64,000 nucleotides of DNA from Thermodesulfobacteriota bacterium (GCA_046753845.1 JBHHUP010000002.1:11061-75060); one strand, 5' to 3'. Positions 36,433-57,723 are shown, numbered from the stretch's first letter. Notes: a model not told the origin generated them from the sequence alone. A program made the numbers and translations.

Positions 36433-36550
36433 CGACGCCCCCCCCCTTATCTTTACTGTTTTTGCCCTTTTCTTTTTACTCTTGGCTTTCCTGCTTTATA
36501 TACAACGTAAATGCCTTTGTTTTTTTAAACAAGAGCAGTATTTTAAATAT

Positions 36551-36583
36551 GTTCTTGACAAGAACATAAATATACTGTATAAT
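36551..36583 (+). promoter_or_regulatory. consensus sigma70 promoter with -35 embedded in a 15-bp palindrome
   Basis: TTGACA (36555-36560), a 17-nt spacer, then TATAAT (36578-36583). GTTCTTG-A-CAAGAAC at 36551-36565 is a perfect 7-1-7 inverted repeat. TATAC-T-GTATA overlaps the -10. Confidence 0.6.
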
Positions 36584-36663
36584 AAATATCATAATCGGTG
36601 GAATAAATCGTTTACAACAACTGGCCATAGATACTTCGACGGTGAAAATCATCTTAGACATGC

Positions 36664-36680
36664 GTAATATACTATATTAC
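36664..36680. promoter_or_regulatory. 17-bp perfect palindrome, candidate operator
   Basis: GTAATATA-C-TATATTAC with 8-bp arms, about 80 bp downstream of the consensus promoter in the AT-rich leader. Confidence 0.35.
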
Positions 36681-36806
36681 AGTTGTTTTCTTAGGACAGC
36701 CATTCTGTTCCATCGCACACTTCTATTTCCTGTAAATCAATTAATAGTTAAGTAGTTTTAGTTTTTCTTGTTTTATGTGTGAAGTACACGCACATTAAGA
36801 GAATTA

Positions 36807-37136
36807 TTGACTTTTTTGTCTTTTATGTACACTTATACTTTAGAGAGAAAATATTTGGCCGGTAAGATTAAGATAGATGCTGAAATCTTTTATGACAAGC
36901 TTAGTGGAGAGGGGCCTGGCCTTCGTGATCTTTTATGGCCGCTCTCTGATCTCAGCCCAAGGGAGCGGGCTGTTTTTATGGAGTATCATTATTGGAGTAC
37001 TCATATGAGGGTAATTGCGAAGAGTCACAGGATTTCACTTGGGAGGGCTTATGAAATACTTTACAGATCAGAAGAAAAAGTCGCATCCGCAAGGACACAG
37101 GAGAAGGCGAAGGAAGATATCTATTTCAACCCCTGA
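36807..37136 (+). CDS. small regulator with sigma70 region-4/LuxR-like HTH
   Basis: LSPRERAVFMEYHYWSTHMRVIAKSHRISLGRAYEILYRSEEKV resembles a region 4.2 HTH. The start is uncertain (TTG 36807 or ATG 36825) and no clear RBS is present. Confidence 0.5.
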   Translation: MTFLSFMYTYTLERKYLAGKIKIDAEIFYDKLSGEGPGLRDLLWPLSDLSPRERAVFMEYHYWSTHMRVIAKSHRISLGRAYEILYRSEEKVASARTQEKAKEDIYFNP

Positions 37137-37320
37137 GGCAGAGCCCGAGGTTAGCTGGAGTGAGTATAAGACCATTAGGCAGTATCAGTCTCTTGGAGAC
37201 GTTCTTGATGAGTTTAAGATATATGGTTTTGCAGCCGGCGTAGAGCATATACTTGAGAAAAATATGCTCTTTGAGAGGGATAACGGTCATTATTGGCTTA
37301 CCTCAGATAAGAAAAAATAG
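37051..37320 (+). CDS. hypothetical phage protein with basic N-terminus
   Basis: ATG at 37051 is preceded by GGGAGGG. It overlaps the previous ORF by 86 nt in the +1 frame and is followed by a terminator. Confidence 0.45.
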   Translation: MKYFTDQKKKSHPQGHRRRRRKISISTPEAEPEVSWSEYKTIRQYQSLGDVLDEFKIYGFAAGVEHILEKNMLFERDNGHYWLTSDKKK

Positions 37321-37365
37321 GTTTTCATTAGTCTTAAAATAATTCAATATATTTTGTTAAGTAGA

Positions 37366-37399
37366 AACCGCACGGGTTATAACCCGCGCGGTTTTTTTT
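37366..37399 (+). terminator. rho-independent terminator
   Basis: ACCGCACGGG-ttataa-CCCGCGCGGT (one mismatch), followed by a T8 run. Confidence 0.65.
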
Positions 37400-37543
37400 A
37401 TCTCTAATTTCGACCTTTAGTGATGGGGGTAGAATAAAATTGCCTTATTTGTCTTGTAAAAACAAATAGATGGGCGTGAAGGGGTAGAAAAAAAACACCA
37501 TAGGGTATAGAGGAGAAAAAAATAACATCAGGAGGTCGCAGCC

Positions 37544-37729
37544 ATGACAGATGTATCCGGTTCTGAGATGAAGGCTTCAGGTGGGCTCAATTGGTTTAAA
37601 TATCGTCAGATTGGAAGAAAAAGGGTCCTTTTGAGGGAGCCGGAGAGATGTCTTGAGTGCGGTCATGTCTTTATTAGTCTTTATCCTATTGGAAGATGTG
37701 TGGATCATGATGGCCTTGAGGAGATCTAA
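37544..37729 (+). CDS. small Cys/His protein, hypothetical (zinc-ribbon-like)
   Basis: An AGGAGG RBS lies 8 nt upstream. The pattern is CLECGH...CVDH. Confidence 0.55.
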   Translation: MTDVSGSEMKASGGLNWFKYRQIGRKRVLLREPERCLECGHVFISLYPIGRCVDHDGLEEI

Positions 37730-37732
37730 AGG

Positions 37733-38254
37733 ATGAGGATCGAGACGGTAGAAGCTCTACCTCCTGTGGAGGTGTATAAAAACGTAGTGGGTGCATGGGA
37801 TTGTAATAAGGCACAGAAATCTGCCAGACATGTCTCCCTTGAATCTGATTACGAGGCTGAGGAGATGAGAGCAGGGGTAGATGAAGTAGCGGTGGAATCA
37901 GCAAAAGAAGGTGTAGTGAATCAGGCAGAGGCTCTTAAAGGCGACTTAAATTCCAAGGGTATTTCTTCTCTGGAGGCCATGGAGGGTATTACCGCGGAGC
38001 ATCGCAGGCTATGGGATAAGGTTAGGAAGAAGTTGGTAGCCGGTCTCTGTAAAAGGGATCTTAATAAAGGCCTTGAGCAGTTGAAGGTCGCAAAGCTTGC
38101 AGGAGATATATTAAGTGTCGTGGTCAAGGGGCAAAGACAGGCCTGGGGTCTTGACGTCCTCGAGGGCGAACTCCGATGCGATGATACGGAGGAGTTTATC
38201 GAAGAGATGGCATCCCTTACGGTACCATCGCGAGCAGATAAGGCTCTGGACTGA
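37733..38254 (+). CDS. hypothetical protein, possible small terminase subunit (by position only)
   Basis: 173 aa ORF immediately upstream of, and overlapping, the large terminase ORF. I recognise no motif. Confidence 0.4.
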   Translation: MRIETVEALPPVEVYKNVVGAWDCNKAQKSARHVSLESDYEAEEMRAGVDEVAVESAKEGVVNQAEALKGDLNSKGISSLEAMEGITAEHRRLWDKVRKKLVAGLCKRDLNKGLEQLKVAKLAGDILSVVVKGQRQAWGLDVLEGELRCDDTEEFIEEMASLTVPSRADKALD

Positions 38255-39449
38255 TGAGAAACGATTCAGTGTAGTCACCGCAGGCAGGCGCTCCGGGAAG
38301 ACCGAGCTTGCTAAGAGAAGGCTTGTTATGAGTCTGGCGGAGAGAAAAAGATGGAGCATCCCAAGGTACTTTGCCGCGGCACCGACAAGGGGGCAGGCTA
38401 AGAGGATTTTCTGGAACGATCTGAAGGCTCTTATCCCCTCAAAATGGGTGAAGAAGGTCTACGAGAGTGATCTGTGTATTAAGACGCGTTTTGGCAGTGA
38501 GCTCTGGGTTGTAGGACTTGACAGGCCCCAGAGGATTGAAGGCATTGCCTGGGATGGAGGTGTTCTTGATGAGTACGCTGATATGAGAGCCACGGTCTGG
38601 ACAGAAAATATAAGGCCCGCTCTCTCGGACAGGCAGGGATGGTGCTGGTTTATAGGGGTACCCGAGGGGTTTAATCATTTCAAGGACCTTGCTGATTATG
38701 CGCGTTCCGGGGTAGATCTTGACTGGGGTTTTTATAGGTGGAACTCCGGCGATATCCTGCCACGTGCCGAGATAGAGTCCGCCAAGAGGATGCTTGATCC
38801 GAAGACATTTCGCCAGGAGTATGAGGCGAGTTTTGAGGGTGCTACGGAGAGGGTTTATTACGCATATCGATCAGAGAGGCATATGGATAGCCATATAAGG
38901 CTGGAGCCGAATCTGCCTATAATTGTCTGCTGTGACTTTAATGTGGACCCCTGCGTATGGATACTTGCCCAGACAGACGGGAGAAGGGTTTTCGTCTTTG
39001 ACGAGATAGTTCTTCATAACACAAATACCGTTGAGATGGGCCGCGAGTTCTTAAAGAGATACGGTAAGCATGGCGCCGGAGTGGTGGTTTATGGAGATTC
39101 CGCCGGCTCGGCAAGGAGCACCACCGGTAAGACGGATTATGTGCTCTTAACTGAGCTTGGTTTTAAGACGCAGAGGATAAAACGCAGGAATCCTCCCGTC
39201 AAAGACAGAATAAATGCCGTTAATAGTATGCTTGAGAACACGAAGGATGAGTTCAGGCTTTTTCATCACCCGCAGTGCGTAAACCTTAAGAAAGATTTTG
39301 AGAGCGTAGTATGGACTGAGGGCGGTGTGGATATAGATAAGACAAATCCCGAGAGGACACATGCTACAGACGCCCTGGGATATTTTATTGAGTATGATTT
39401 TCCCCTGAGGAGTAATAGATTCGATCCATCGAGAAGGTTTTATAAATAA
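38115..39449 (+). CDS. terminase large subunit
   Basis: Walker A in the context RFSVVTAGRRSGKTE, Walker B-like VLDEYAD, and a C-terminal nuclease-like region (CCDFNVDP...HATDALGY). GTG at 38115 has an AGGAG RBS. ATG at 38181 is the alternative start. Confidence 0.85.
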   Translation: MSWSRGKDRPGVLTSSRANSDAMIRRSLSKRWHPLRYHREQIRLWTDEKRFSVVTAGRRSGKTELAKRRLVMSLAERKRWSIPRYFAAAPTRGQAKRIFWNDLKALIPSKWVKKVYESDLCIKTRFGSELWVVGLDRPQRIEGIAWDGGVLDEYADMRATVWTENIRPALSDRQGWCWFIGVPEGFNHFKDLADYARSGVDLDWGFYRWNSGDILPRAEIESAKRMLDPKTFRQEYEASFEGATERVYYAYRSERHMDSHIRLEPNLPIIVCCDFNVDPCVWILAQTDGRRVFVFDEIVLHNTNTVEMGREFLKRYGKHGAGVVVYGDSAGSARSTTGKTDYVLLTELGFKTQRIKRRNPPVKDRINAVNSMLENTKDEFRLFHHPQCVNLKKDFESVVWTEGGVDIDKTNPERTHATDALGYFIEYDFPLRSNRFDPSRRFYK

Positions 39450-39500
39450 GACGGCGCCAGTGGAACAAGTGAAGGTAAACAAACAAAAAAAGAGGTTACG

Positions 39501-40913
39501 GTGACATTAGAAGAGCTTGAGAAAACACATCCTCATTATGATGCATGGGTAAAAGAGTGGATATTCTATATAAGGTCCTACCTTGGTGGAACCCTTTACA
39601 AGAAGGCAGACTATTTACTGCAGCATCCTTTTGAGAGCGCCACTAACTACCGGCGCCGCAAAGAGATTGCATATTATTATAATTACTGCGGCCCAATTGT
39701 GGACATCTTCGTGTCTCATCTGTACAGAAAGAGCGCAAGCAGGGATTACGGCTCTCTTGCGGCGGACCCTCTCTTTAAATCATTTCTCAAGGATGCGGAC
39801 CACGAGGGCTCAAATTTTTCTCAGTTCATGCGCGACGCGCAGAGGTTCGCCTCTGTTTACGGCAGGGTTTCTATTCTTGTGGACAGCCCTGAAAACAACG
39901 CCATGACAAGGGCCGAGGCTATTAGCGAGGACATTCGTCCTTATGTGAGTCTTATAACCCCGGAGAACCTTTTGGATTGGACATTTACCAGGTTGCCCTC
40001 AGGTAAACCCGTACTTGAGAGGGTGAAGATTCGTGTGGATGAAAATACTTATCGTATCTGGACAAGGGAGTTATGGGAGTTATGGGAGGTGGAAAGAGAG
40101 AGCGGAGAGGTGCGGCTGCGTGGTTTTGGGGAGCACGGCCTTGGTGTTGTTCCTCTGGTGACGCTTTACAATAAGAGAAGCGGCATAAAGATGGTGGGCA
40201 GCTCGGACCTGCAGGACATAGCTGATATTAATAAGAATATTTATTACCTCTGCAGCGATGCAAAGGAGATTATTGAGAATACGGCTTTTCCAATGCTGGC
40301 CATGCCTTACTCCAAGGCAGGCGGTGATGATGAGAGGGAGATAGGGCCGAGGAATATTCTTCAGTATGATCCCTCAGAACCAAACGCAAAACCATACTGG
40401 CTCGAGCCGCCCCATTCTTCTCTAACGGAGATACGCGAGTGGGTGAGGCAGGACATCGCCGAGATACACAGAATTGCAAAGCTTGGCGGAGTAAAGTCAT
40501 CAGAGGATTTTGCTCATGTCAGGTCTGGTGTGGCTCTTGAACTTGAATATCAGCAGCTCTATGCAACACTTGCCGAGAAGGCCGACAATATAGAGCAGGC
40601 CGAGTCCACAGTACTTGACCTATGGGCAAGGTGGTCGGGGAGCCGTTTTGATGGGCTTATTGATTATCCTGATGATTTTTCTGTACGTGATATGGCAAAG
40701 GATCTTGATAATGCCATTAAGGCTCAGTCAGCGGTAGTTGATTCAAAGACTTTTCGTAAAGAGCTGCAGAAAAAGATAGTCACAACAATATTACCGAAGA
40801 TGGATGAGAGACTTAAAGCCAGGATCAAGGGTGAGATAGAAGAAGGTGTTGAGACAGGTGATGATAGGTCGGCAGTATCCCCCGGAGAGGAAAAAGGAGG
40901 GAATAGTGAGTAA
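39501..40913 (+). CDS. portal protein (DUF4055-like)
   Basis: 470 aa ORF directly after the terminase. The N-terminal pattern YKKADYLLQHPFES...RRRKEIAYYYNYCGPIVDIFVSHLY recalls the DUF4055 portal family. Acidic C-terminus. Confidence 0.7.
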   Translation: MTLEELEKTHPHYDAWVKEWIFYIRSYLGGTLYKKADYLLQHPFESATNYRRRKEIAYYYNYCGPIVDIFVSHLYRKSASRDYGSLAADPLFKSFLKDADHEGSNFSQFMRDAQRFASVYGRVSILVDSPENNAMTRAEAISEDIRPYVSLITPENLLDWTFTRLPSGKPVLERVKIRVDENTYRIWTRELWELWEVERESGEVRLRGFGEHGLGVVPLVTLYNKRSGIKMVGSSDLQDIADINKNIYYLCSDAKEIIENTAFPMLAMPYSKAGGDDEREIGPRNILQYDPSEPNAKPYWLEPPHSSLTEIREWVRQDIAEIHRIAKLGGVKSSEDFAHVRSGVALELEYQQLYATLAEKADNIEQAESTVLDLWARWSGSRFDGLIDYPDDFSVRDMAKDLDNAIKAQSAVVDSKTFRKELQKKIVTTILPKMDERLKARIKGEIEEGVETGDDRSAVSPGEEKGGNSE

Positions 40914-41175
40914 CAGTTACCTTGACAAAGAAGCTTTTAGTACCGCAAAGAAACTTTGTATGGGTTATGGGATTAGTTTTCCCGAGGCCTACAAGATTAC
41001 CAGTAGTATCTGGGAAGAGGCCCGCAGGGCCATACTGACCTCCGTTGATAAAGAGGACTGGCAAAAACTATCTTTTAGCGATAAGTCCCATGTTTGTCAG
41101 AGGGTTGTCAGGGCGTTAATGGACAAGAAGAAGACGCTTGATTTTGTAAGCGGGGCAACGAATACGTTGCTGTAG
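40906..41175 (+). CDS. hypothetical phage protein
   Basis: GTG at 40906 with an AGGAGG RBS 7 nt upstream. It overlaps the portal stop. Confidence 0.5.
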   Translation: MSNSYLDKEAFSTAKKLCMGYGISFPEAYKITSSIWEEARRAILTSVDKEDWQKLSFSDKSHVCQRVVRALMDKKKTLDFVSGATNTLL

Positions 41176-41286
41176 TTTGCCCGTATCGCGCGTTTAACCC
41201 CGAGACGCGGCAGGTTGCCCTTCAGGCAGGGCTGGTCACTTTTGTATTGACCTTTTAACGGGGGATAAATCACAGGAGGATTACTA

Positions 41287-41964
41287 ATGCAGAGTAGTGA
41301 GTTCAAGACGCCGGAAAAGAGTAATGGCCATGGTAATGAATCTGAGAGCACATCCGGAAGGGTTGCCTTTAGCAGCGAGCAGCAGGCCCGGGTGCAGGAG
41401 CTCATTGACGAATCATATAGAAAGGCCTTTGCCAAGGCCCAGAGGACACGTTCATCAAGTGAGGACGTGGAGGGGCTGCGTCGTGAGATAGCCGGACTTA
41501 AGGAGGAGAAAAAAAAGCTTGCACTCCTTAAGGCCGTATCGAAGTACAACGTCGTAGATGGTGAAGAGATAGTGAAACTCCTGGATGACAGGGTGAGGAT
41601 GGATGAAGAGGGCCATGTCACCGTTGTAAATTCTTCGGGATCCGCGAAGATAAACGACTCGGGATATCCTGTTGAGATGGATGACTTTATCTCTCAGTGG
41701 TTAAGCGACAGGCCTCATCATTTAAGATCAGCAAGCGGTGCTGGAGCAGGCTCACACGGCTCCGGTTTTACTCATGGCAGCATTGGCGGCCATAGCCTTG
41801 GTGATCCATCATCGTGGAGTTCCATGCCTCGCGAAGATCTTGACAGATATCTGCGTGAGGGTATCAACGTACATGGCTCTGCCGGACAGGTATACAGGTT
41901 CAGGGACGTTAAGAATCCATTTCTGGATGCAAGAAAGAAGCGTTTCAGTTCTGTAGAAAGGTAG
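41287..41964 (+). CDS. scaffolding protein (putative)
   Basis: AGGAGG RBS. Charged, coiled-coil-like sequence (EDVEGLRREIAGLKEEKKKLALLKA). It lies between the portal and capsid genes. Confidence 0.6.
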   Translation: MQSSEFKTPEKSNGHGNESESTSGRVAFSSEQQARVQELIDESYRKAFAKAQRTRSSSEDVEGLRREIAGLKEEKKKLALLKAVSKYNVVDGEEIVKLLDDRVRMDEEGHVTVVNSSGSAKINDSGYPVEMDDFISQWLSDRPHHLRSASGAGAGSHGSGFTHGSIGGHSLGDPSSWSSMPREDLDRYLREGINVHGSAGQVYRFRDVKNPFLDARKKRFSSVER

Positions 41965-42035: not shown

Positions 42036-42899
42036 ATGGCAAACGAAGTAACTTCGGCCGCTCTAAGCGCCGGTGAGTTAATAGCCGCAGAGATAGTATC
42101 TCGTCTTGTAATAGACGCGGCTTATGCCGAATCCGTGATGCCGCCCCTTGTAAGGCTGGCGGATATAAGCGGAGACAGCACCCTTACCGTTGATTTTCCT
42201 AAATGGCCTATGCTTGCGGCCGCTGACCTTACAGAGGCCACGGACATGAGCAACACGGCTGTTAACACCACTTCTACGAGCATTACCGCTGATGAGGCCG
42301 GGATAATGATAACGGTAACAGATATGCTTCTTAACAGCTCTGTCCTTGGAGGTCTTGAGCCATACGCGGCGGAGCTTGGTAAATCACTTGCCAGTAAGAT
42401 TGACGGTGATCTGCTCTTCGCTGTATCAAGTTTTACCAACACTGTTGGTACTACCGGGGTAGGTATTACGGAGACTAATTTTCTTGAGGCACTTTACACA
42501 ATGGAGTTAGGTAATGCCACAGGACCTTTTGTATCGGTTCTTCATCCCAAGCAGGTTCATGATCTGCGGCTTGCCCTTGCGGCAACTACAGGTGCTGTCT
42601 GGGGAGGAGCTTCTGCTCCTGCCAGCGATATCGGCGCCATGGCGAGCCTTTATGGTGTGGATATTTTCCAGTCCACAAACTGCGCTTCTGTTAACGTCAA
42701 TGTTGACAGACAGGGTGTGATGATGCCCATGGGCAATCAGTCAGGGCTGGCCTTTGTATTGAAGACGGGGGCCAAGACAGAGCTGCAGAGAGACGCATCG
42801 CTTCGCGCTACAGAGGTTGTCGTAACGGCCGTGTACGGTCACGGCTGCGTCAATCCTGATGCCGGCGGCGGAGTAAAGATAATAACGGCTCACGAGTAA
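42036..42899 (+). CDS. major capsid protein
   Basis: Strong AAGGAGG RBS. 287 aa, Ala/Thr/Val-rich, with no Cys-rich or TM features, positioned after the scaffold gene. A GC hairpin follows the stop codon. Confidence 0.72.
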   Translation: MANEVTSAALSAGELIAAEIVSRLVIDAAYAESVMPPLVRLADISGDSTLTVDFPKWPMLAAADLTEATDMSNTAVNTTSTSITADEAGIMITVTDMLLNSSVLGGLEPYAAELGKSLASKIDGDLLFAVSSFTNTVGTTGVGITETNFLEALYTMELGNATGPFVSVLHPKQVHDLRLALAATTGAVWGGASAPASDIGAMASLYGVDIFQSTNCASVNVNVDRQGVMMPMGNQSGLAFVLKTGAKTELQRDASLRATEVVVTAVYGHGCVNPDAGGGVKIITAHE

Positions 42900-42969: not shown

Positions 42970-43464
42970 ATGACCGCAAAGAGAGTACGGCCGGTTAAGG
43001 AGGGTTTTTATTCACTTGCCTCGGATGTAAGGGGAGGTATTGCGTGGCAGGGTGAGTTACTGCGGGATTTTTGGATGTGGAATAAACAGTTTACAGAGTA
43101 CGGCGGAGGAGTGCGTCTTATTCAGACTGTAAAAGTAACGGATTTAAAAGAGGCCGCTATAAGGTATTGGCGGGATAAGTGGGTTCCTCTTCACACGCCT
43201 GACGAAGATCTTTTATTACGTATGGAAGAGAGCCTGAGAGCGCATCAGGGGTTAAAGGACGCAGGGATAGCTTTTCCAGTGACTAGTTTTTTGCAGCCAA
43301 CGGATCCTATACCTGAAGAGCTTATGGGAGCCGAGGTAAGAAGACATCTGGGGCTTGCGAAAGTGAAAAGGAAGAGACTTGTTCCAAAGGTTAAACTAAA
43401 CAAAAAGGCTATCCAGGCCTTTAAAGAGTCCAAGGGGGTAGTAAATGGCAACGTGGTTTTTTAG
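42970..43464 (+). CDS. hypothetical phage protein
   Basis: 164 aa with a GGGGGA RBS, on the same strand as the module. Confidence 0.5.
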   Translation: MTAKRVRPVKEGFYSLASDVRGGIAWQGELLRDFWMWNKQFTEYGGGVRLIQTVKVTDLKEAAIRYWRDKWVPLHTPDEDLLLRMEESLRAHQGLKDAGIAFPVTSFLQPTDPIPEELMGAEVRRHLGLAKVKRKRLVPKVKLNKKAIQAFKESKGVVNGNVVF

Positions 43465-43624
43465 CGGAACTTTTATGAAAGACGGCACCCCTATTACAAT
43501 AGAGGCACGTAGTGAGTCTGAGCTGAATGAGTGTGTGAGTAAGGGGCTTGTGCCGGTTGAGAAGCAGAGTAGAAAGAAATCATCGGTGGGAGCAAAGATA
43601 CCGGCAAGATCAAGAAAGAAGTAA
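43445..43624 (+). CDS. small hypothetical protein (59 aa, below track cutoff)
   Basis: ATG with an AAGGGGG RBS 6 nt upstream. I verified the reading frame codon by codon. It overlaps the upstream gene by 20 nt and has a basic C-terminus. Confidence 0.4.
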   Translation: MATWFFSGTFMKDGTPITIEARSESELNECVSKGLVPVEKQSRKKSSVGAKIPARSRKK

Positions 43625-43667
43625 TACGTTACTGGTCCCTGACGGGAGAAATGTGGGGGGTTGAATA

Positions 43668-43826
43668 TTGAGAGAGAAAAAGGCCGTAGAGAGGGTTATC
43701 TCGCGTATGTGCAGGCATGTTGAGCGCTGTAAGGGAAGGGCCCCGGAAGGAAAGGACCTTAGAGAGATTGAGAGAAAGGTGCGAGACGGGGCCATGCATG
43801 CGGCTAAGAGAAAGAAAGATGCATAG
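43668..43826 (+). CDS. small basic hypothetical protein (52 aa, below track cutoff)
   Basis: TTG start 7 nt after a G6 run. Lys/Arg-rich. Weak evidence. Confidence 0.25.
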   Translation: MREKKAVERVISRMCRHVERCKGRAPEGKDLREIERKVRDGAMHAAKRKKDA

Positions 43827-43970: not shown

Positions 43971-44363
43971 ATGTCATTTTCAGATTATCTTGAGCTTAAA
44001 GTGCTTGATCATGTTTTTGGAAAGGCGGCTTATACAATGCCAACCGCATATGTCGGCCTCTCAACGGCAGACCCGCTCGACACCGGAGCTGGACTTGCAG
44101 AGCCCACTGGCGGAGCCTACGCCCGTGTAACTACTTCAGCGATTGACTGGAATGCGGCTGCGGCTGGCTCTATCAGTAACGCTAACGCTCTTACCTTTCC
44201 TCAGGCAACGGCCTCATGGGGAACTGTTACACATTTTGCAGTATTTGATGCGCTAACGGCAGGCAACCTCTTGGCCTCGGGTGCATTGACAGTTTCTAAG
44301 GCGGTAGGTAACGGCGATACCGTTAAATTCGATGTGGGTCAGCTTTCTGCCACTTTGGATTAG
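43971..44363 (+). CDS. conserved small phage surface-type protein (family with N-terminal YLExKxLDHxFG motif)
   Basis: GGAGGAG RBS. The sequence SDYLELKVLDHVFG...GGAYARV...WGTVTHFAVFDA...GNLL matches a family I recall as widespread in phages and prophages, without an agreed function. Confidence 0.6.
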   Translation: MSFSDYLELKVLDHVFGKAAYTMPTAYVGLSTADPLDTGAGLAEPTGGAYARVTTSAIDWNAAAAGSISNANALTFPQATASWGTVTHFAVFDALTAGNLLASGALTVSKAVGNGDTVKFDVGQLSATLD

Positions 44364-44422
44364 AGTTCCTTGCATATATCGTAGAACGTTCAAAATGTAA
44401 CGCAAGATAGATAGGGGTAAGA

Positions 44423-46812: not shown

Positions 46813-46881
46813 GAATTGTTATACGAGCGGTATCCCAGCAGATTAGTTTTGTTTTCTGTCAGTATCAAGAGGGGGGTAACG

Positions 46882-50273: not shown

Positions 50274-51970
50274 TGGCAACCTGGGAAAAGATTAAATTTT
50301 TTTACGATACTATGCTTGGTCTAACAGGCTCTACCTTTACGGCTTCAAGCACCCTTGCGGGTACTGATGTTATGAATCTTTATAATATGCTTGAGGTCAA
50401 CAGGTGGGAGTCTGCTGATACGAGCGACCCTCAGTATATTACATGGAGCGCTAATCGCCTGACTAACGGAGGATTTGAGAGTTGGACCGCAGGGGCTCCG
50501 GATTATTGGACTCTGACCGGGGCCGCCGCCACAGTCTCTATGGAGGTTAGTACTATTAAAAAAGGTACCTCCTCTGCAAATGTAACTCGCGCCGGTACTG
50601 ATTGCGGGCTCACTCAGAACATATCTCCTTATATTGATCTTAAGGGCAAGTCTTTCAGCCTGGGCGTATGGGTCTTCGCGGCGCAGGCCTCTCAGGCGAG
50701 GCTTGCCGTAACTGATGGCCTCAAGACCTCCTATTCAACTTATCATAGCGGTGCAGGGGCCTGGGAGTTCTTATCGGTCTCTCATAATGTTTCGCAGGGG
50801 GCCGCATCTCTTAGCGTTAATCTTCAGGTCCTTAATACGGATGGTTCTGTTTTCTTTGATGTGGCAAGCGCAGGTGAGAGAAAGAGCGCTGATTATCTGG
50901 CCGTTATGGGACATGATTTTTACGGCTCTGGCGGAGCCCTCACTTTAGAGGCATCTGATGATGATTTTACCGATGATATACAGGGCGTTATCAGTGTCCG
51001 TCCTTTCTCTAACCATGCCATTGTCTCAGAGGCACGCTTGCTGGTAAATCCTGATTTTGAGGTCTGGGATAACGGCACTCTGGCAGCGCCAACGGGATGG
51101 AGCAGGGGAGGGGGACCGTCAAGTTCTATTGCTAGAGAGTCTCTCGCAGTCTATAAGGGTCTGTACAGCGCGAAACTTTCAAGTGCTCTGAATGAAGCCG
51201 TATCGCTTGAGACCACGGATATGGGAAATGCGGTGAATCTGTATTTATCGGGAAAAACCGTTAGTTTTGGATGTTTTGTCAATACGGCAACTTCGGGACG
51301 CGTAACACTTAGAATCTCCGACGACGATGGGACGGGTTCACAGTTCACTGAGAGCGCCGCACATCCTGGAGACGGGTCGTGGCAGTTTTTGACTGTAACG
51401 CGATCTCTGAGGACTGGTCTTAAGGGCTTTAAAGTAATGTGTAATGTATCTACGGGAGCGGCAGTTGACGTTTATATTGACCAGGCTGTTCTTAGAAACG
51501 CCGCATCACTTCAGGCAGGGGAGCTCTCTGATTACGTTTTTCCGGGAGCGGTAAACAAAAGACACTGGCGTCTGAAGATGACCGGACACAGCAGCGCTCC
51601 TTATATGCACATATGTATCTGGGGCTCCAAGACAATTCTTGATTATGCCACATCCTCTTTTGATCCCAACGGCGAACGCGTTAAGGCCAATGTTAATGTA
51701 AGCAGCTCCGGCCAGATTATGGGTGTACACAGGCAGTACTCAGAGCGCTCTATGTCACTTGCTTTTCGTGAAGCAGATCCAACTCTGTATGAGAAGGTAC
51801 GTGCATGGTGGGAAGAGTCCGGGCTGAAAAACTTTTTTGTAGCCTGGGAGCGTGGCAATAATCCCGATGATATTTATCTCATGTTCCCTGATAAGAGGTT
51901 CACTAATCCGCTTAAAAATGGCGGCCTATTCCGGGATATCAACATAAAACTTAAGGGGAGAAAGGAATAA
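50273..51970 (+). CDS. distal-tail/baseplate protein with two CBM4/9-like carbohydrate-binding insertions
   Basis: TAATG overlap with the tape measure gene. There are two paralogous jelly-roll-like segments, beginning NGGFESW...P.YW (aa 62-200) and NPDFEVW...PTGW (aa 257-407). Confidence 0.6.
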   Translation: MATWEKIKFFYDTMLGLTGSTFTASSTLAGTDVMNLYNMLEVNRWESADTSDPQYITWSANRLTNGGFESWTAGAPDYWTLTGAAATVSMEVSTIKKGTSSANVTRAGTDCGLTQNISPYIDLKGKSFSLGVWVFAAQASQARLAVTDGLKTSYSTYHSGAGAWEFLSVSHNVSQGAASLSVNLQVLNTDGSVFFDVASAGERKSADYLAVMGHDFYGSGGALTLEASDDDFTDDIQGVISVRPFSNHAIVSEARLLVNPDFEVWDNGTLAAPTGWSRGGGPSSSIARESLAVYKGLYSAKLSSALNEAVSLETTDMGNAVNLYLSGKTVSFGCFVNTATSGRVTLRISDDDGTGSQFTESAAHPGDGSWQFLTVTRSLRTGLKGFKVMCNVSTGAAVDVYIDQAVLRNAASLQAGELSDYVFPGAVNKRHWRLKMTGHSSAPYMHICIWGSKTILDYATSSFDPNGERVKANVNVSSSGQIMGVHRQYSERSMSLAFREADPTLYEKVRAWWEESGLKNFFVAWERGNNPDDIYLMFPDKRFTNPLKNGGLFRDINIKLKGRKE

Positions 51971-51973
51971 ACG

Positions 51974-53662
51974 ATGGCTGATCTTAGAATTCAGTATATG
52001 GAAGAGATGGTTGGCGCCGGGCATCCCGCTAAATCGGATACCCTTAACAGGCTGATGCTCTCAGAACATGGGATTAACGGCGCGCATAAATGGTTTGATG
52101 TGACACATCCTGACTTTGGAGCCAAGGGGGATGGTGTAACAGACGATACCTCTGCGATACAGGCGGCATTTGACGCTATAGCGGCCGCTGGCGGAATCAG
52201 GACGGTATACTTTCCATCGGGTACTTATCTCATCTCAGCAGGCATTAATATAAATAAGAACAACATAACGGTGCGCGGCGAGGGTGAATCATCGGTAATA
52301 CAGGTAAAGAACAATGTCGGCGACTTGCAGTTTAACGGTTATGGGGCCATGTTTCTTATCGCCACTGGTTCAAGCCATATCGTTATTAAAGACTTATTGT
52401 TAGACGGTAACTCGGATAATAACACTGCTTCTACTTATAGCGCGATAGAAGGCACCAATACCGATAATCTCTCTATACGGGATATGACGATAAAGAACAC
52501 ACCCTTTAACGCTATACTTCTTACTGCCACCACTTTGCCTCATACTAACTTTAAGGTGACGAATAATAAACTCTTAAATATTGGGTGGCAGGGTATACAG
52601 GTTCGTTATGGTGATACAGGAATAGTATCCGGGAATAATATTTTCTCCAGCGGTAACCACGGTATAGTCATTAACTTCGGGAGTACGGCGGGGACTCACT
52701 CAAGCAGCCGGGTTGTTGTCTCGGATAATATTATCAACAGGTCTGTCCCGCCCAGCACTATCCTGACGGGTCAGGTTGAGAGTGGAATGATGATAATGAT
52801 TAGCGAGGCCAGTAGTTATATAGTCGTGGACAGCAACGTATGTTACGACAACAGGAATGCCGCAAATGATGGTATCGCTACCGTTGGGTCTCCTGCTCCT
52901 GGAGGAGCCGGGCCTATATATCGCTCCATTGTCATAAGCAATAACTCAGTCTCTTATGCCGGTGGTTTTGGTATAGACGCAACGAGCCATTGTACCGTAA
53001 CGGGCAATGTAATTATGTATCCGGCTACGGATGGAATTGTTTTGTCAGGCGACCTTGGACCTATGCGAAAAGATGTGCTTATCTCTAATAATGTTATATA
53101 CAATCCTAATTTCTCGAATACACCCGGCACCGCGGGTATTGCGCTAAACTCCGCCGTTAATAACGGGGCCACCTGGAAGCATATTAGAATAACAAACAAT
53201 ATAGTCTTTGATGAGGCAGGACAGGTCCTGCATGGCGTTCTTGTAAACGCCACAAATATGTTGGTGAGGTATATCGAGATAAGCGGCAATGACCTTAATA
53301 TAATAGGGGGGCTGGACTCAATACATATTACTAATCCCGGTAATGTTACTAATCTGCGCGTTAGAGATAATGTGGAGAAGAATCTTTTCAGGATTATAGC
53401 GAATGGCGATGCCACTCCCTCAGTGCTCGGGGCGGAGTATTTAACTACAGCTAATACCACTGCTACAACCATCACTATGTTTAATGATGGTTATGTCGGG
53501 CAGCGGATATTTGTAAGAATAGGCGACAATCTAACTACCATTGACTTTACAGGAACTAATCTTAAAGGTAATGGCGGGGTGAATTATGCTGCCTCCATAG
53601 GCTCTACCATGGACTGTGTATTTGATGGGACTCAATGGGGTTGTACTGTTAATAAGGCTTGA
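51974..53662 (+). CDS. tailspike with right-handed beta-helix (pectate-lyase-3/GH28-like) domain
   Basis: FGAKGDGVTDDTSAIQAAFDAIAAAGG..VYFPSGTYLIS signature, followed by many NN/GN-containing beta-helix rungs. Confidence 0.8.
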   Translation: MADLRIQYMEEMVGAGHPAKSDTLNRLMLSEHGINGAHKWFDVTHPDFGAKGDGVTDDTSAIQAAFDAIAAAGGIRTVYFPSGTYLISAGININKNNITVRGEGESSVIQVKNNVGDLQFNGYGAMFLIATGSSHIVIKDLLLDGNSDNNTASTYSAIEGTNTDNLSIRDMTIKNTPFNAILLTATTLPHTNFKVTNNKLLNIGWQGIQVRYGDTGIVSGNNIFSSGNHGIVINFGSTAGTHSSSRVVVSDNIINRSVPPSTILTGQVESGMMIMISEASSYIVVDSNVCYDNRNAANDGIATVGSPAPGGAGPIYRSIVISNNSVSYAGGFGIDATSHCTVTGNVIMYPATDGIVLSGDLGPMRKDVLISNNVIYNPNFSNTPGTAGIALNSAVNNGATWKHIRITNNIVFDEAGQVLHGVLVNATNMLVRYIEISGNDLNIIGGLDSIHITNPGNVTNLRVRDNVEKNLFRIIANGDATPSVLGAEYLTTANTTATTITMFNDGYVGQRIFVRIGDNLTTIDFTGTNLKGNGGVNYAASIGSTMDCVFDGTQWGCTVNKA

Positions 53663-53682
53663 TCGTACTCAAGAGGGCGATA

Positions 53683-55407
53683 ATGGTAACGCAAAGATTT
53701 CTTGAAGAACTTAAGAAAAGCGAGAATATGCCTAACGTCATCCTTGAGCTAAGGCTTAAAGGAGGAATACGTTTTATTGGCATTCACGGTAATAGGCCTG
53801 CTTATATTCATTATTTTGCTAATGGTGTTTACCGTGCCGATGCTGATATATTCGCCGTGGGCTCTGATACTCTGCACTTTATTGATGGCATTCTTAAATC
53901 CGTATCCTCTCTTCAGAACAGGATAGATCCATCGAAGGGATTTGCCACAAGGGGTGAGTTAAAGGTCGTAATATCCGGGAGAGATAACTTTAAGTCTCTT
54001 ATAAGAGATGAGTTCCTGAAAAATGCCGAGGTGATAAGAAAAGATGGTTTTGTAGCCCCGGGATTTACATATTTTGATTATGTCTCCACTTTTCATGGCC
54101 GTATATCCGATTGGAGCCGCAAAGGTGATGAACTTACCATTACCATAGCCGATACCCTTGCCGATGGGGCAAGAAAAAATCTTCCCCTTAGCAACTCAAG
54201 CGGTTCGCAGTCTCTTGATTACTCCAATATGCATCCGGGCGAGATAATGAAAGACCTTCTAATAAATAAACTGGGCATGGATGTCTCTACTATAAATACT
54301 GCCAGTTTTGATTTTGAGTCATCTCTATGGCTTAACGGATGGGTTTTCAGCCGCGTACTTACAGAACCCGTGGAAGCCAATAAAATCTTAAATGAGCTTC
54401 AGAGAGAGACTAACTCCTTCATCGTTCATGACGGACTCAGTGTGAACTTGAAGGTTTTTGCCCCTCCTCCTCCCGGTACAAGCGTAGAGCAGTGGTCTGA
54501 TGGTACGCATATTATAGAAGATTCCCTTACGCAGAAATCCGGGTACAGAGACAAGTTTTTTAACCGCGTAGTTGTGTATTTTGATTACAAGGGATCAGGC
54601 GAAAATACGGATAACTTCGAGAGCGCCGTTATCGCGGTGGATGCCGCATCGCAGGACAGCAGCCAGTGGAACGAGATATCCACGAAGACGATAAAGAGCA
54701 AATGGATAAAGTCGTTAACGCACTCTCAGCCCGTGAGTATAACAGGCGCAACTGTGTTCCAGATCTCGAAGAGCAACGGACCAGGAGCAGGGGTGCTCAC
54801 TTTTACTCCCGGCGGCAACGGCAGTCATACACTTCAGTGGGCAGCTCCCGGCGATACGACAGGGGCAGCGGTGAATGTCTCTTCTTCAGGTAGGTACACA
54901 CTCTTTTCCTCTGACGGGAGCAAGTGGATTAGGCTTGTAGTTGATTACGGGAACCTTCCAACGCAGCTCTCTAATGATACGATAAATATAACCACCCTTA
55001 ACGGTCTGAGTATGGCTACTCAGCTGGCGCAGAAGATACTTAATCGCTACCGCGATCCTGTATCCATCATAAGCTTCGAGATGGATATTAATAATATGGT
55101 CTATAACGGTAATTTTATAAGGCCCACTGATCTTAAGGATATTACAACAGACGAGGCCTTTGAGCATGGCGCTTCCACATGGGATAAAAAGCGCGTGATG
55201 ATTACGCGTGTTAGGCCCGATATGAGCAGACACAGGGTAAGGGTTGAGGCCGTAGAGACGAAGCTGTACCGCCGTTACGGTTTTATAGCCCCTTCGGGGC
55301 AATCCGATTATCCCGGGGCCACTAAATCAGAGAGAGAACGCGCTTATATAGGAGACAGTTCCAATAAGGTTAATGGCGGTACGGAAGACGGATACATAAT
55401 TTGGTAA
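53683..55407 (+). CDS. tail hub/host-specificity (gpJ / Phage-tail_3-like) protein, putative
   Basis: About 575 aa ORF after the tailspike gene. ATG at 53683 has a GAGGG RBS (TTG at 53659 is the alternative). The assignment rests mainly on position and size. Confidence 0.5.
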   Translation: MVTQRFLEELKKSENMPNVILELRLKGGIRFIGIHGNRPAYIHYFANGVYRADADIFAVGSDTLHFIDGILKSVSSLQNRIDPSKGFATRGELKVVISGRDNFKSLIRDEFLKNAEVIRKDGFVAPGFTYFDYVSTFHGRISDWSRKGDELTITIADTLADGARKNLPLSNSSGSQSLDYSNMHPGEIMKDLLINKLGMDVSTINTASFDFESSLWLNGWVFSRVLTEPVEANKILNELQRETNSFIVHDGLSVNLKVFAPPPPGTSVEQWSDGTHIIEDSLTQKSGYRDKFFNRVVVYFDYKGSGENTDNFESAVIAVDAASQDSSQWNEISTKTIKSKWIKSLTHSQPVSITGATVFQISKSNGPGAGVLTFTPGGNGSHTLQWAAPGDTTGAAVNVSSSGRYTLFSSDGSKWIRLVVDYGNLPTQLSNDTINITTLNGLSMATQLAQKILNRYRDPVSIISFEMDINNMVYNGNFIRPTDLKDITTDEAFEHGASTWDKKRVMITRVRPDMSRHRVRVEAVETKLYRRYGFIAPSGQSDYPGATKSERERAYIGDSSNKVNGGTEDGYIIW

Positions 55408-55419
55408 GGAGGGTTTGGA

Positions 55420-56010
55420 ATGGCGACACCCACTAAGAACTGGACGGATATCCCTGATACGGCTATTGATGCTGATAGCCCCCTTGATACTACGCTCTTA
55501 ACGGAGATAAGGGATGACCTTGTGCATATGCACGAGTGGCTGGGGCTTAACTATACAGCTGCTGTGGATCATAACCATGATGGTCTTAACAGCGCGCTGC
55601 CGGCCTCGCCGGGTTCATATACTACGGATGGAGCCGCAGCTGACCTTGTTCTCTTTGCTGATACTGAGCGTTCAAAATTCGGTGATGCCGGCGGGACATG
55701 GACAAAGGTTAAGGAGTTTAGAGTTGGCCGCGGCGGTAGTCTGAAGGTCAGTTTTGATGGCAAGTATGTTATCTTCGCCGGAGCTCCGACTACGGTGGGG
55801 GCAAGGATATATAAGAATTCCATACCTTACGGAACACTACGGTCCTTTACAACGGCTTATCAGACTTTTACAGAGATATTGGGCGGCTTTGCTCCCGGCG
55901 ATGTGGTGCAGCTTTATTATGTCTGCAATGGATCGGATGACGAGGTATTTGTGAGGAACTTCAGGTTATATGCTGACCATGATTTTCAGTCTAATGTAGT
56001 TATGGATTAG
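55420..56010 (+). CDS. tail fibre-like protein, hypothetical
   Basis: AGGAGG RBS. The N-terminal WTDIPDTAIDADSPLDTTLLTEIRDDLVHMHEW...DHNHDG pattern is seen in phage fibre proteins. Confidence 0.45.
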   Translation: MATPTKNWTDIPDTAIDADSPLDTTLLTEIRDDLVHMHEWLGLNYTAAVDHNHDGLNSALPASPGSYTTDGAAADLVLFADTERSKFGDAGGTWTKVKEFRVGRGGSLKVSFDGKYVIFAGAPTTVGARIYKNSIPYGTLRSFTTAYQTFTEILGGFAPGDVVQLYYVCNGSDDEVFVRNFRLYADHDFQSNVVMD

Positions 56011-56208
56011 AGAAAGCAGGAACTGTTTTATGGTCCATTTCATTTTTTAGAGATAAAGAGACGACATTATCTCTACGTATTTTGATGGGAGACAAGGGGA
56101 GTTCAATGGCATGGTGGTCTTTTTTGTACATCAATCCATATAACTTCAAAAAGGTTAAATCTTACATGTTGTGCAGGCATATAGCGCGATGGTAAGCAGG
56201 TTACGCAG

Positions 56209-56583
56209 ATGAAGATTGGTTTGGGGCTTAGCCCCTGTAGTGAAAGGTCACGGGTGTGGAAATCAAGGGGCAGCTTTACGGAGGGCATAGTGAGTCCTGA
56301 GAAAAATCCTAACATATGGATCTTAGTAAGCGGTGGTCTTCTTGGTGTCTGGACCGCCATGCTGTCTTATGTGCTTAGGGCATTTGGGCAACGCATGGAT
56401 AGGATTGAGGCCTCGGTTAATCATCAGAACGTGCCGAAGACAGAGTGTGGTTTCTTTCGTGAGAATACGAGAGAGATTTTGCGTGAGATAAAAAATGTTC
56501 TTGCGGAAAATAACAGGGATATACAGCACATGAATAATACTATTGTTAAGATAGCCACAAAAATGGAGGCCCTCGATGAGTGA
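56209..56583 (+). CDS. lysis-associated membrane protein (one TM helix plus coiled coil), holin or i-spanin-like
   Basis: TM segment IWILVSGGLLGVWTAMLSYVL followed by a helical C-terminus. It overlaps the endolysin start by 8 nt. The likely true start is GTG at 56290, after GGAGGG. Confidence 0.5.
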   Translation: MKIGLGLSPCSERSRVWKSRGSFTEGIVSPEKNPNIWILVSGGLLGVWTAMLSYVLRAFGQRMDRIEASVNHQNVPKTECGFFRENTREILREIKNVLAENNRDIQHMNNTIVKIATKMEALDE

Positions 56584-57013
56584 TTTTGATCGTGCCATGG
56601 AGTTTGTCTTTAAGTGGGAAGGCGGTTATGTCTATGACGCGAGAGACCCGGGAGGCGAGACCAAATGGGGGATATCCAGGCGCACTTACCCAACGCTGGA
56701 TATAAAAGACCTTACAAAGCAGGAGGCTGAAGATATTTATCGCCACGATTACTGGGAAAAACTTGGTTGCGATAACCTGCTATGGCCGGTAAACCTCGTT
56801 GTCTTCGATACCGCAGTTAATATGGGCGGTGCGAGGGCGAAAGATTTTCTCTCACGCACGCCTTACTGGCAGGATTACATTATTGAGAGGATAGATTATT
56901 ACGCGAGAGTGCTGGGTAGAAAACCTTATCTGCGGGGCTGGATAAACAGGACAGTGGCGCTTTACAGGTTTTGTGGAGAAGCTCAGCACCCGGTCAGCCG
57001 CTCAACACATTAA
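56576..57013 (+). CDS. endolysin, glycoside hydrolase family 108
   Basis: FKWEGGYVYDARDPGGETKWGIS matches the GH108 EGGY..DP.DPGG.T..GI signature. Confidence 0.8.
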   Translation: MSDFDRAMEFVFKWEGGYVYDARDPGGETKWGISRRTYPTLDIKDLTKQEAEDIYRHDYWEKLGCDNLLWPVNLVVFDTAVNMGGARAKDFLSRTPYWQDYIIERIDYYARVLGRKPYLRGWINRTVALYRFCGEAQHPVSRSTH

Positions 57014-57181
57014 TCAGAGGCCAGTGAGGGCCGCGAATAGGGCATTTTTTAAGAGAGCACTACGACTATGTACGGTTGGTTTACTCTGTTTTGATACCGG
57101 TGAGCACGTTTTTTAGAGGTTTTATTGTGTAGATTCTACGTGCCATCTTTTCGTGTTTTTTTACTACAGGAGGTTAGCAAG

Positions 57182-57304
57182 ATGAGCTGCGAAGAGAAGT
57201 TAAGGTCTATTAATAAGGTCGGTCTTTGTCTTAGATGCGGTAAACTTTGCAGGATTAGTCTAAAGACCTGTGTCTGCGGCGACTGCGCCAGGGAGGCCAT
57301 ATGA
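57182..57304 (+). CDS. 40-aa Cys-rich (zinc-ribbon-like) protein, below track cutoff
   Basis: An AGGAGG RBS lies 7 nt upstream. I verified the frame codon by codon. The stop overlaps the next start (ATGA). The pattern is CLRCGKLC...CVCGDC. Confidence 0.45.
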   Translation: MSCEEKLRSINKVGLCLRCGKLCRISLKTCVCGDCAREAI

Positions 57305-57723
57305 CACCAGTACTTGGCGACCTTATAGAGAGCACCGTTGGCAAGGTGGTTGGCAAATTAACTGACCATTACCTTCCGGCCACCATGGATGAGAAGGAGA
57401 AGGCGGAGTTTCGTATTAAAGCCGGCAGCCTTGCCCTTGAGGAGGCCAGAGCCGCCACGGCCGATATAGAGAACGCCCGCGCTCTTGCCGTGACAGAGTC
57501 CGAGGGAGCCCCGCCGTGGGCAAATGTCTTAAAGGTGACCCATCGCCCCTTATGGTCATTCATAATGCTGGCCATTTTCAGCTGGACCATACTCGCGCCC
57601 TACCTCGGTTATCCCCAGATACCTCTTACGGAGGTGCATAAGTCTATAATGCAGACCGTAATAATCTTCTACTTTGGCGGTCGGAGTGTGGAAAAAAGCA
57701 TAGGTATGATAAAGGCACGCTGA
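57301..57723 (+). CDS. holin-like protein (resembles the 3-TM GTA-release holin family)
   Basis: Soluble charged N-terminal half followed by a hydrophobic C-terminal part (HRPLWSFIMLAIFSWTILAPYLG...IMQTVIIFYFGG). The family assignment is from memory of PF11351-type sequences. Confidence 0.55.
   Translation: MTPVLGDLIESTVGKVVGKLTDHYLPATMDEKEKAEFRIKAGSLALEEARAATADIENARALAVTESEGAPPWANVLKVTHRPLWSFIMLAIFSWTILAPYLGYPQIPLTEVHKSIMQTVIIFYFGGRSVEKSIGMIKAR

Follow-up and report, generated by a model that had tools for sequence, protein, structure and literature searches.

The window analysed here is the whole 64,000-nt stretch of DNA from a Thermodesulfobacteriota bacterium (GCA_046753845.1 JBHHUP010000002.1:11061-75060), and the element in question is a phage-like gene cluster of ~21 kb at positions 36,433-57,723. 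About 28 genes for packaging, head, tail and lysis, all on the same strand, lie within 36.4-57.7 kb. An earlier reading made from the sequence alone (the original prediction) had described a head-tail-lysis cluster with all open reading frames (ORFs) on the + strand. The ORF calls agree, with every convincing ORF between 36.8 and 57.7 kb on that strand, and Pfam and PHROG searches name the large terminase (TerL), portal, scaffold, capsid, tail tube, tape measure and endolysin. The genomes used for comparison are metagenome-assembled genomes (MAGs) or metagenome contigs, and the window apparently comes from one likewise; individual comparison loci are designated by L numbers.

Packaging, head, tail and lysis genes

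Family matches bear out the core genes in the order originally proposed, whereas the labels "neck" and "baseplate" and the small terminase are assignments by position. The genes given below are all on the + strand. TerL (38181-39449) matches Terminase_6N/6C and phrog_2 (E=5.8e-38) and has the Walker A motif AGRRSGKT, read from the translation. Its frame is open from ATG 38181 back to GTG 38115; an exact look-up of the protein from GTG 38115 gave no match, while those of the capsid and portal proteins did, likely because the true start is ATG 38181. The portal is of SPP1 type (39501-40913; PF05133 SPP1_portal; phrog_145, E=1.3e-78), and its 3′ end is overlapped by a small ORF of 109 aa (40846-41175) which is called as a gene in L002 and L003, is 27-84% conserved in many relatives and has no family match. 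The scaffolding protein (41287-41964; phrog_206, E=4.5e-9) is followed by the major capsid protein (MCP; 42036-42899; PF25209 Phage_capsid_4; phrog_267 and phrog_544), which is 69-98% identical across relatives.

A candidate small terminase (37733-38254), placed by position, overlaps the start of TerL. In alignment, its N-terminal ~80 aa are hypervariable and its C-terminal ~90 aa conserved, and an AlphaFold model gives a predicted local distance difference test score (pLDDT) below 50 for residues 1-77 (disordered) and ~80 for residues 79-163, a helical hairpin. It has no Pfam, PHROG or PDB match, and a Foldseek search of BFVD returned nothing significant. The small terminases of gene transfer agents (GTAs) are reported to lack a sequence-specific DNA-binding domain (PMC11841831). 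That the candidate has no conserved DNA-binding domain would fit such proteins, although its identification is not secure.

Downstream of the MCP gene are three candidate head-completion or connector proteins (164, 59 and 52 aa; 42970-43826), assigned by position, without a Pfam or PHROG match and conserved in order among relatives. A variable insert (43971-45928) then separates the head genes from the neck genes. It encodes a Gp80-like head fibre or decoration protein (130 aa) and a DUF2341/LamG lectin-like protein (501 aa), with matches to PF23140 (E=5e-44), phrog_240 (head protein), PF10102 and Laminin_G_3. Compared in L006, L012, L014, L020 and L036, the insert ranges from ~0 to 5 kb and is missing in the complete genome CP129479.1 (L006 13585-13741); it has the appearance of an exchangeable module for head decoration or adhesion. 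The position differs in L169, where the distal end of the cluster has a Gp80-like gene.

Two neck or tail-terminator candidates (295 and 163 aa; 45925-47307) have no family match and are collinear in all relatives. The tail tube gene (47390-48481; PF18906 Phage_tube_2, E=8e-13; phrog_290) precedes those of the tail assembly chaperones G and G-T (48516-49300), which are joined by a programmed -1 frameshift. The original prediction had called this signal intact, and it is: the slippery heptamer A_AAA_AAC (48884-48890) immediately precedes the stop codon of G, and no stop interrupts the -1 frame up to 49300. The heptamer is invariant in 29/29 relatives, where the -1 frame is open for 133-141 codons in the 23 loci showing its end and, in the remaining six, as far as the retrieved DNA extends. 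The tape measure (49290-50273; phrog_9483, 1506, 3336 and others, E down to 1.7e-15) is 327 aa long, which indicates a short non-contractile tail, and no sheath family was found among the ORFs of the cluster.

The distal tail or host-recognition module (50273-56010) comprises a CBM_4_9-containing protein, a beta-helix tailspike/depolymerase, a fibre-like protein and a 196-aa protein. It is here that the cluster varies, with only N- or C-terminal anchors conserved and centres that differ among relatives. It is followed by the lysis cassette (56209-57723), consisting of a 124-aa membrane protein, a GH108 endolysin (56576-57013; PF05838, E=1.4e-28; phrog_315), a 59-aa Cys-rich (CxxC) protein without a family match (57125-57304) and a holin-like last gene (57301-57723; phrog_3427 holin, with a weak match to PF11351 GTA_holin_3TM). 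The holin has 148 homologs, many of them with PF11351. The type of endolysin is swapped in some relatives, for Peptidase_M15_4 in L063 (9312-9635) and for DUF5675 in L065 (9596-9997), and the holin-like last gene stays conserved.

Translational coupling, part of the original description, is confirmed by the ORF coordinates, which give ATGA overlaps at 45925 and 57301 and TAATG at 50273. Base composition had been judged host-like, and it is close but not identical: the GC content at third codon positions (GC3) is 48.5% in the cluster vs 54.7% in host genes, and relative synonymous codon usage correlates at r=0.87 between cluster and host vs r=0.93 when one half of the host genes is compared with the other.

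A conserved two-tier control region

Upstream of the structural genes is a two-tier control region which is conserved among relatives and was absent from the original description. From left to right it consists of a sigma-70 promoter with a palindromic operator, two small genes (r1 and r2), a terminator, a pair of GGGGTAGAA boxes and the structural operon. The comparison establishes the conservation of this arrangement; the roles of its parts we infer.

The sigma-70 promoter (36550-36583, +) matches the consensus at 12/12 positions, with TTGACA at 36555-36560, a 17-nt spacer and TATAAT at 36578-36583. A match of at least 10/12 is retained in 39/44 relatives, in all host contexts. The palindrome TGTTCTTGACAAGAACA (36550-36566), a putative operator, encloses the -35 hexamer, which lies within a 15-bp palindrome in many relatives. 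The outer arms are fully complementary in 16/39 and come in two co-varying versions, GTTC..GAAC and GTGC..GCAC, so that the pattern across versions is GT(G/T)CTTGACAAG(C/A)AC. Such compensatory changes in the arms point to a dimeric repressor. Pfam and PHROG searches found no recognisable repressor encoded in the cluster. An ORF of 89 aa (36398-36667) with a good ribosome-binding site overlaps the end of ychF and spans the conserved promoter; it is conserved in the closest relatives only and is probably not a gene.

The gene r1 (36855-37136, +) encodes a ~93-aa helix-turn-helix (HTH) protein resembling sigma-70 region 4. The original prediction had placed a regulator here, which holds, but with its start at 36807. 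We place the start at TTG 36855 because in-frame stop codons occur upstream in L009, L012 and L013, and TTG is the start in most relatives examined. All of the scanned orthologs (27/27) match Pfam Sigma70_r4 weakly, below the curated threshold (best E=2.9e-5). The best PDB sequence match in a profile search is region 4 of the sigma factor WhiG, also weak (E=0.099), and phrog_1190, a sigma factor, is matched at E=0.0023. A single-sequence structure model is poor (pLDDT 63), and Foldseek with it listed SigF, extracytoplasmic function (ECF) sigma factors, Mu C and LuxR-type HTH proteins, none of them significant. We regard r1 as a putative activator of the structural operon.

The second gene, r2 (37051-37320, +), begins with ATG and encodes 89 aa with a basic N-terminus (MKYxTGxKKRSRLQGHRKRRR). 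It overlaps the 3′ end of r1 by 86 nt in the +1 frame, and its orthologs at 46 loci have the same start and overlap. The ratio of nonsynonymous to synonymous substitution (dN/dS) is 0.11 for r1 and 0.09-0.14 for r2. Synonymous divergence (dS) is lowered in both, ~0.40 vs 0.8-1.0 elsewhere, as expected because the frames overlap and the DNA is dual coding.

An intrinsic terminator (37366-37399, +), a GC-rich hairpin with U8, lies 3′ of r2, and a hairpin with a T-run occurs at this position in 35/44 relatives with differing sequences. Two conserved boxes follow (37424-37513, +), GGGGTAGAATAA at 37426 and, ~55 bp apart, a second box at 37481 (GGGGTAGAAAAAAAACACCATAGGGTATA / GGGGTAGAAAAAAAACACCATAGGGTAT). 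The GGGTA(G/A)A box is present in 40/46 relatives, about half of which have two copies, with a conserved ACACCATAGGGTAT downstream, and GGGGTAGAA is confined to these two places in the 64-kb window. The box region is a putative r1/r2-dependent promoter of the structural operon. The first gene of that operon, zn (37544-37729, +), encodes a 61-aa Cys-rich protein (CxxC...C..H) which has no Pfam or PHROG match and was found in every relative covering its position, at 38-87% identity. The parts would thus form a cascade in which a repressed sigma-70 promoter leads to r1/r2, these to the box promoter, and the latter to a ~20-kb operon from zn to holin.

Some relatives have additional DNA in this region. 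In L024, a DEAD-box helicase gene is inserted between r2 and zn (4756-8040), and L048 (2153-3830) and L050 (6083-6782) have ~1.7 kb and ~0.7 kb of extra DNA between ychF and r1.

Chromosomal position, selection and origin

Gene content, synteny, dN/dS and co-divergence support the original reading of a GTA-like, independently domesticated head-tail-lysis locus. Judged from comparative genomics, the locus is probably a viriform, a domesticated and vertically inherited derivative of a small siphovirus-like phage which makes DNA-filled, short-tailed particles and lyses its producer, as either a GTA or a PBSX-type element.

A portal profile scan of one genome per GTDB species found the cluster in 54 species of uncultured Thermodesulfobacteriota, with portal homologs of 57-92% identity. 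Among 8000 candidates scored, 400 portal homologs had E<=1e-10, and the best 120 grade smoothly from 100% to 57%. The named sources among these 120 listed homologs are all Thermodesulfobacteriota, Deltaproteobacteria, "bacterium" or metagenome, and mostly MAGs. Searches with the window proteins (tblastn) gave the same gene order in all 54 species, namely r1, r2, zn, candidate small terminase (TerS), TerL, portal, scaffold, MCP, neck, tube, G and GT.

In most carrier species the cluster is at the ychF site. Orthologous ychF-lpxC intervals hold this cluster even in relatives whose portal is 63% identical, and both junctions are conserved. The left junction, ispE-prs-L25-pth-H+-PPase-ychF, is identical in CP129479.1 (portal 69%) and is also found in a 611-kb contig (portal 63%) and in ~25 GTDB species with enough upstream DNA. 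The right flank, DUF2905-lpxC-phoH, was seen in two relatives (three contigs). One of them (58% holin identity) has the junction holin-DUF2905-lpxC...phoH-ybeY, and the second (65% holin identity) has the same order plus one extra gene, an antitoxin-like SocA_Panacea gene inserted between holin and DUF2905 (L065 10615-11154). Two minority contexts occur, SelA/GGDEF-EAL/DUF3108 on the left in six species and CbiG/creatininase/TP_methylase in three; both consist of ordinary host genes, and the species sharing each are related. A 43-kb contig with DUF3108 on the left and tmk-holB-PSP1-metG on the right has a cluster of ~20.3 kb, in which no integrase or replication gene was found. On the portal tree, the contexts largely form their own groups, with the SelA-context locus L054 near the base of the ychF-context group.

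Outgroup contigs (ychF identity <=65%) keep prs-L25-pth-ychF and have no cluster after ychF; in two of them lpxC is ~4.4 kb downstream of ychF. Scanning metagenomes for ychF returned one in-clade contig (L088), which bears the cluster, and otherwise outgroups of <=65% identity, so the scan says little on presence or absence inside the clade. In cluster-bearing genomes of the ychF context, an H+-pyrophosphatase gene (33097-35118 in the window) lies between pth and ychF, and in nearly all outgroup contigs (L089-L167) pth is directly before ychF with no such gene between them. The H+-pyrophosphatase may be a synteny marker for the clade.

Selection was assessed as dN/dS against the three closest relatives. 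Structural genes have low values (0.02-0.1), with dS as in the flanking genes. The values are 0.056-0.079 for TerL (which spans this range), portal (0.06-0.07) and scaffold (0.06), 0.05-0.07 for tail tube, tape measure (0.066) and G, 0.02 for MCP and 0.09-0.16 for the neck or tail-terminator candidates; the flanking prs, H+-PPase and ychF genes have 0.04-0.07. The small-terminase candidate has the highest value of the cluster (0.26-0.46). The range of dS is alike within and outside the cluster and is at or near saturation among relatives (0.8 to >2). Compared with CP129479.1, cluster proteins are 43-75% identical and neighbouring housekeeping proteins 54-73%.

Co-divergence was assessed from protein distances and the portal tree. 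In 15 genomes, p-distances of prs+HPPase+ychF and of TerL+portal+MCP correlate at r=0.92 with a slope of 0.93 (Mantel 0/2000), as vertical conservation would have it. Core genes are intact in 44/44 relatives for MCP, 27/27 for G and 27/28 for the tail tube, and hidden frameshifts or stops were seen in one of ~54 species. This sole damaged relative, L060 (JAJCZG010000031.1), has its portal match in two pieces and an in-frame stop in a neck gene, which could be decay or an assembly error.

These data bear on the proposal that the cluster is a functionless, decaying prophage remnant, conserved for want of time. The early region is missing, as it is in remnants, and the split portal and neck-gene stop codon of L060 are what decay would produce. 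However, dN/dS is 0.02-0.1 at synonymous divergences of 0.8 to >2, near saturation; the frameshift signal, promoter, terminator and GGGTAGA boxes are kept across species whose housekeeping proteins differ by <=30%; and core genes are intact in nearly all species. We find a remnant scarcely credible. Co-divergence, selection, the invariant heptamer and intact genes are as predicted for a vertically inherited functional element, and not for a remnant or a re-infecting phage.

The original prediction found no lysogeny or replication genes and core genes on both flanks. Family searches place ychF to the left of the cluster and DUF2905, lpxC and phoH to its right. Integrase, recombinase, repressor, primase, helicase and polymerase families had no match in the cluster or in 13 scanned flanking ORFs, apart from weak, secondary DEAD/AAA matches of phoH. 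The 13 ORFs, about half of the larger flank ORFs, are ten between 2.2 and 18.3 kb, including gatA, gatB, enoyl-ACP reductase and two NADH-dehydrogenase subunits, plus H+-PPase, lpxC and phoH. Profile searches of the relatives' examined flanks, in all three host contexts, give the same result. A direct-repeat search gave no att-like pair bracketing the cluster. No tRNA adjoins it either, as had been claimed: the sole tRNA, tRNA-Gln(ttg) between ispE and prs (30602-30676), is 5.8 kb upstream of the cluster, and an Rfam search of the window found nothing beyond it.

Three other classes of element were considered and rejected. For an intact temperate prophage, no integrase, att duplication, repressor switch or replication module was matched, and the early region is missing. 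For a phage satellite, either a phage-inducible chromosomal island (PICI) or a capsid-forming PICI, no int, rep or pri gene was found, and the cluster has its own full tail module. For a tailocin (R- or F-type), the cluster has capsid, scaffold, portal and terminase genes under strong selection.

Among cultured phages, Pelagibacter phages HTVC026P, 111P, 112P and 202P and phage DSL-LC06 come nearest (portal 33-38%, MCP 33-35%), all with complete genomes of 30-32 kb that include early regions. A closer relative is the phage-like contig L082 (IMGVR_UViG_3300041402_000316), with 57% identity in TerL, 51% in portal and 61% in MCP. The order TerL-portal-scaffold-MCP is common to all of these and the cluster, and neither the cultured phages nor L082 have the r1-r2-zn module. 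HTVC026P has an early region with an HTH regulator, HNH and DnaD, whereas the cluster has no early region. In L082, ERF, an MmcB-like nuclease and a Lin1244/DnaD-like gene are directly upstream of TerL, where the cluster has host DNA, so that the cluster looks like the late half of such a phage. On the portal tree L082 and L083, both phage-like and without r1, r2 and zn, branch outside the chromosomal clade. The zn/TerS/TerL order of the cluster recurs in seven longer IMG/VR contigs that have six or more of its genes in collinear arrangement (L069-L075) and in L084, with r1-r2 in those extending far enough upstream. As far as sequence comparison can tell, an ancestor of a broad clade of uncultured Thermodesulfobacteriota acquired a phage late region with packaging, head, short non-contractile tail, host-recognition and lysis genes; the early region, with its replication and recombination genes, is gone, and the rest has since been inherited chromosomally, intact under purifying selection. 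A second, far more divergent copy (TerL 48%, portal 56%, scaffold 30%) is found in L058 (JACRCM010000063.1), from the same MAG as L048; it groups with the phage-like relatives and could stem from a true prophage or from phage sequence contaminating the bin.

The several related contigs listed as viral in IMG/VR, together with the three or more chromosomal contexts and a GC3 somewhat below that of host genes, are what one would expect if the cluster were a functional temperate phage or satellite, served in trans by unlinked genes, a helper phage or Xer-type recombinases for integration and replication and inserted repeatedly at the ychF site. The IMG/VR contigs L069-L075 and L084, however, share the order of the cluster, and the phage-like L082 and L083 are outside its clade. 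There is no att duplication and no integrase near the junctions that were inspected for the three contexts, each context is largely restricted to its own clade of the portal tree, and cluster and flanks diverge almost one to one with equal dS, unlike a re-infecting element. Mobilization in trans is thus very improbable.

Proposed mechanism and relation to known systems

For the domesticated phage that we favour, we propose the following course of events. The sigma-70 promoter, with its -35 hexamer in the palindromic operator, would normally be shut by a repressor encoded outside the cluster. Relieved in a few cells, it would drive r1 and r2, with the transcript ending at the terminator, and r1 and r2 would switch on the GGGGTAGAA-box promoter of the ~20-kb operon. 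The terminase would then package DNA by a headful mechanism into scaffold-built capsids. Because there is no replicating or excised copy of the element and the small-terminase candidate is without a recognisable DNA-binding domain, what is packaged would be host DNA taken essentially at random. The capsids would then receive short tails whose depolymerase and fibre tips vary, and holin and endolysin would finally lyse the producer.

In its most specific form, this reading is of an undescribed GTA family, independently domesticated from a ~30-kb siphovirus-like phage as a self-contained ~20-kb locus with its own sigma-like cascade and lysis genes, moving random host DNA from cell to cell in anoxic subsurface communities and ancestral to an order- or class-level clade of Thermodesulfobacteriota from groundwater, sediment and hydrothermal sites. 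We consider the case for this full version evenly balanced. Likewise, the genes suggest an even chance, roughly, that the particles bring about true gene transfer.

The known system closest in logic is PBSX of Bacillus subtilis, which packages ~13-kb random host DNA and has the sigma-like factor Xpf (PMC4243946); its particles with this DNA are freed by lysis (PMC4243946, PMC12946183). Like the cluster, PBSX is one contiguous locus at a conserved site, with packaging, head, tail and lysis genes and no self-propagation. In this defective prophage, a repressed early promoter leads by way of Xpf, a small positive factor, to late genes that end in holin and endolysin, and the layout proposed here is similar. 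PBSX differs in its contractile tail and in an Xre repressor gene of its own; here, neither a sheath nor a repressor gene was found, and the tube, G/GT and tape measure genes indicate a non-contractile tail. r1 has a region-4-like domain only, with a weak match, and the two host phyla differ; PBSX is set beside the cluster by description.

This likeness in architecture and two-tier control, in which repression of a promoter, a sigma-like factor and late genes ending in lysis follow one another, also suits a different purpose. Selection would then favour the same locus for its use as a weapon or for lysis (as a "phibacin" like PBSX, a killer particle or public-goods release); particles would attach by their tails to related strains and kill them, and the packaged DNA would be an undelivered by-product. 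The host-recognition module, with its depolymerase-like beta-helix, CBM and LamG domains, is the most variable part, as would be expected for strain-specific targeting. Selection on terminase, portal and scaffold is nevertheless as strong as on the tail genes (dN/dS 0.06-0.08), which pure killing would not require, and the genes point to a non-contractile tail: the tape measure is short, and a sheath was not found. Such a function is in our view rather unlikely, but the gene data do not separate killing from DNA delivery.

Returning to a GTA-like function, RcGTA and CcGTA of the Alphaproteobacteria (Rhodogtaviriformidae) resemble the cluster in having head and tail genes without replication or integration genes, vertical inheritance, purifying selection and a short siphovirus-like tail. 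As the original prediction had it, the gene families differ from those of RcGTA. RcGTA-type elements have an HK97-type capsid with a prohead protease and a Phage_portal-type portal; here the portal is of SPP1 type, the capsid belongs to Phage_capsid_4, the tail tube matches Phage_tube_2 and a scaffold takes the place of the protease, which fits independent domestication. Pfam and PHROG searches of the cluster ORFs gave no match to an RcGTA-type protease, to GTA-specific distal tail families or to GafA, and the sole family match in common, a weak one, is PF11351, a family named after the GTA holin and carried by many of the holin homologs here. The cluster is not a member of the RcGTA family. 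RcGTA also has regulators and lysis genes at unlinked loci, whereas here they are inside the cluster, and no link to CtrA or quorum sensing is known for the cluster. Dedicated GTA activators with sigma-factor-like DNA-binding regions, GafA and, in Caulobacter, GafYZ, stand at the top of the cascade in those systems (PMC9638019, PMC11150451), and the idea of a sigma-like activator is shared by the cluster through its putative activator r1.

The cluster is set beside two further systems by description. VSH-1 of Brachyspira hyodysenteriae, outside the Alphaproteobacteria, is a ~16-kb head-tail-lysis cluster running in one direction with host genes on its flanks, and it packages 7.5 kb. Its host belongs to a different phylum from the hosts of the cluster. 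Dd1 of Desulfovibrio desulfuricans is the sole GTA reported from Thermodesulfobacteriota (PMC9953437). It was defined by transduction experiments in cultured Desulfovibrio, whereas the clade studied here is distant and uncultured, and no Desulfovibrio names are among the 120 best portal homologs listed. Full-text literature searches found no description of the present element.

Several points weigh against the reading that we prefer. The hosts are uncultured and the locus is known from its genes alone, the sigma-like nature of r1 comes from sub-threshold matches, and the small terminase is assigned only by position. The analysis covered 64 kb of this genome, so that an unlinked integrase or further phage-like loci are possible. 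With at least three chromosomal contexts, the cluster has moved, or the genome was rearranged, a few times, and GC3 is ~6 points below that of host genes. The 54 species are a count of carriers and not a frequency within the clade. Finally, the nearest phages with a capsid protein of the same size have genomes of ~30-32 kb; the head may thus hold more than the 21-kb cluster, and the criterion that a GTA is too small to carry itself may fail.

Very few GTA-like elements are known outside the Alphaproteobacteria (PMC12946183), and how often phages are domesticated in this way in bacteria is an open question (PMC9953437). To these the locus adds a well-supported GTA candidate from another phylum, carried by no fewer than 54 species of an uncultured lineage common in groundwater and sediments. 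Its comparative signature is a fixed locus, co-divergence and strong purifying selection, and it comes with a readable control circuit of a promoter with operator, a sigma-like factor, a terminator and a dedicated promoter. Should host DNA be carried in the particles, genes could be exchanged by this route among relatives of sulfate reducers in the subsurface, and viromes would contain reads that pass for "viral" but come from host DNA.

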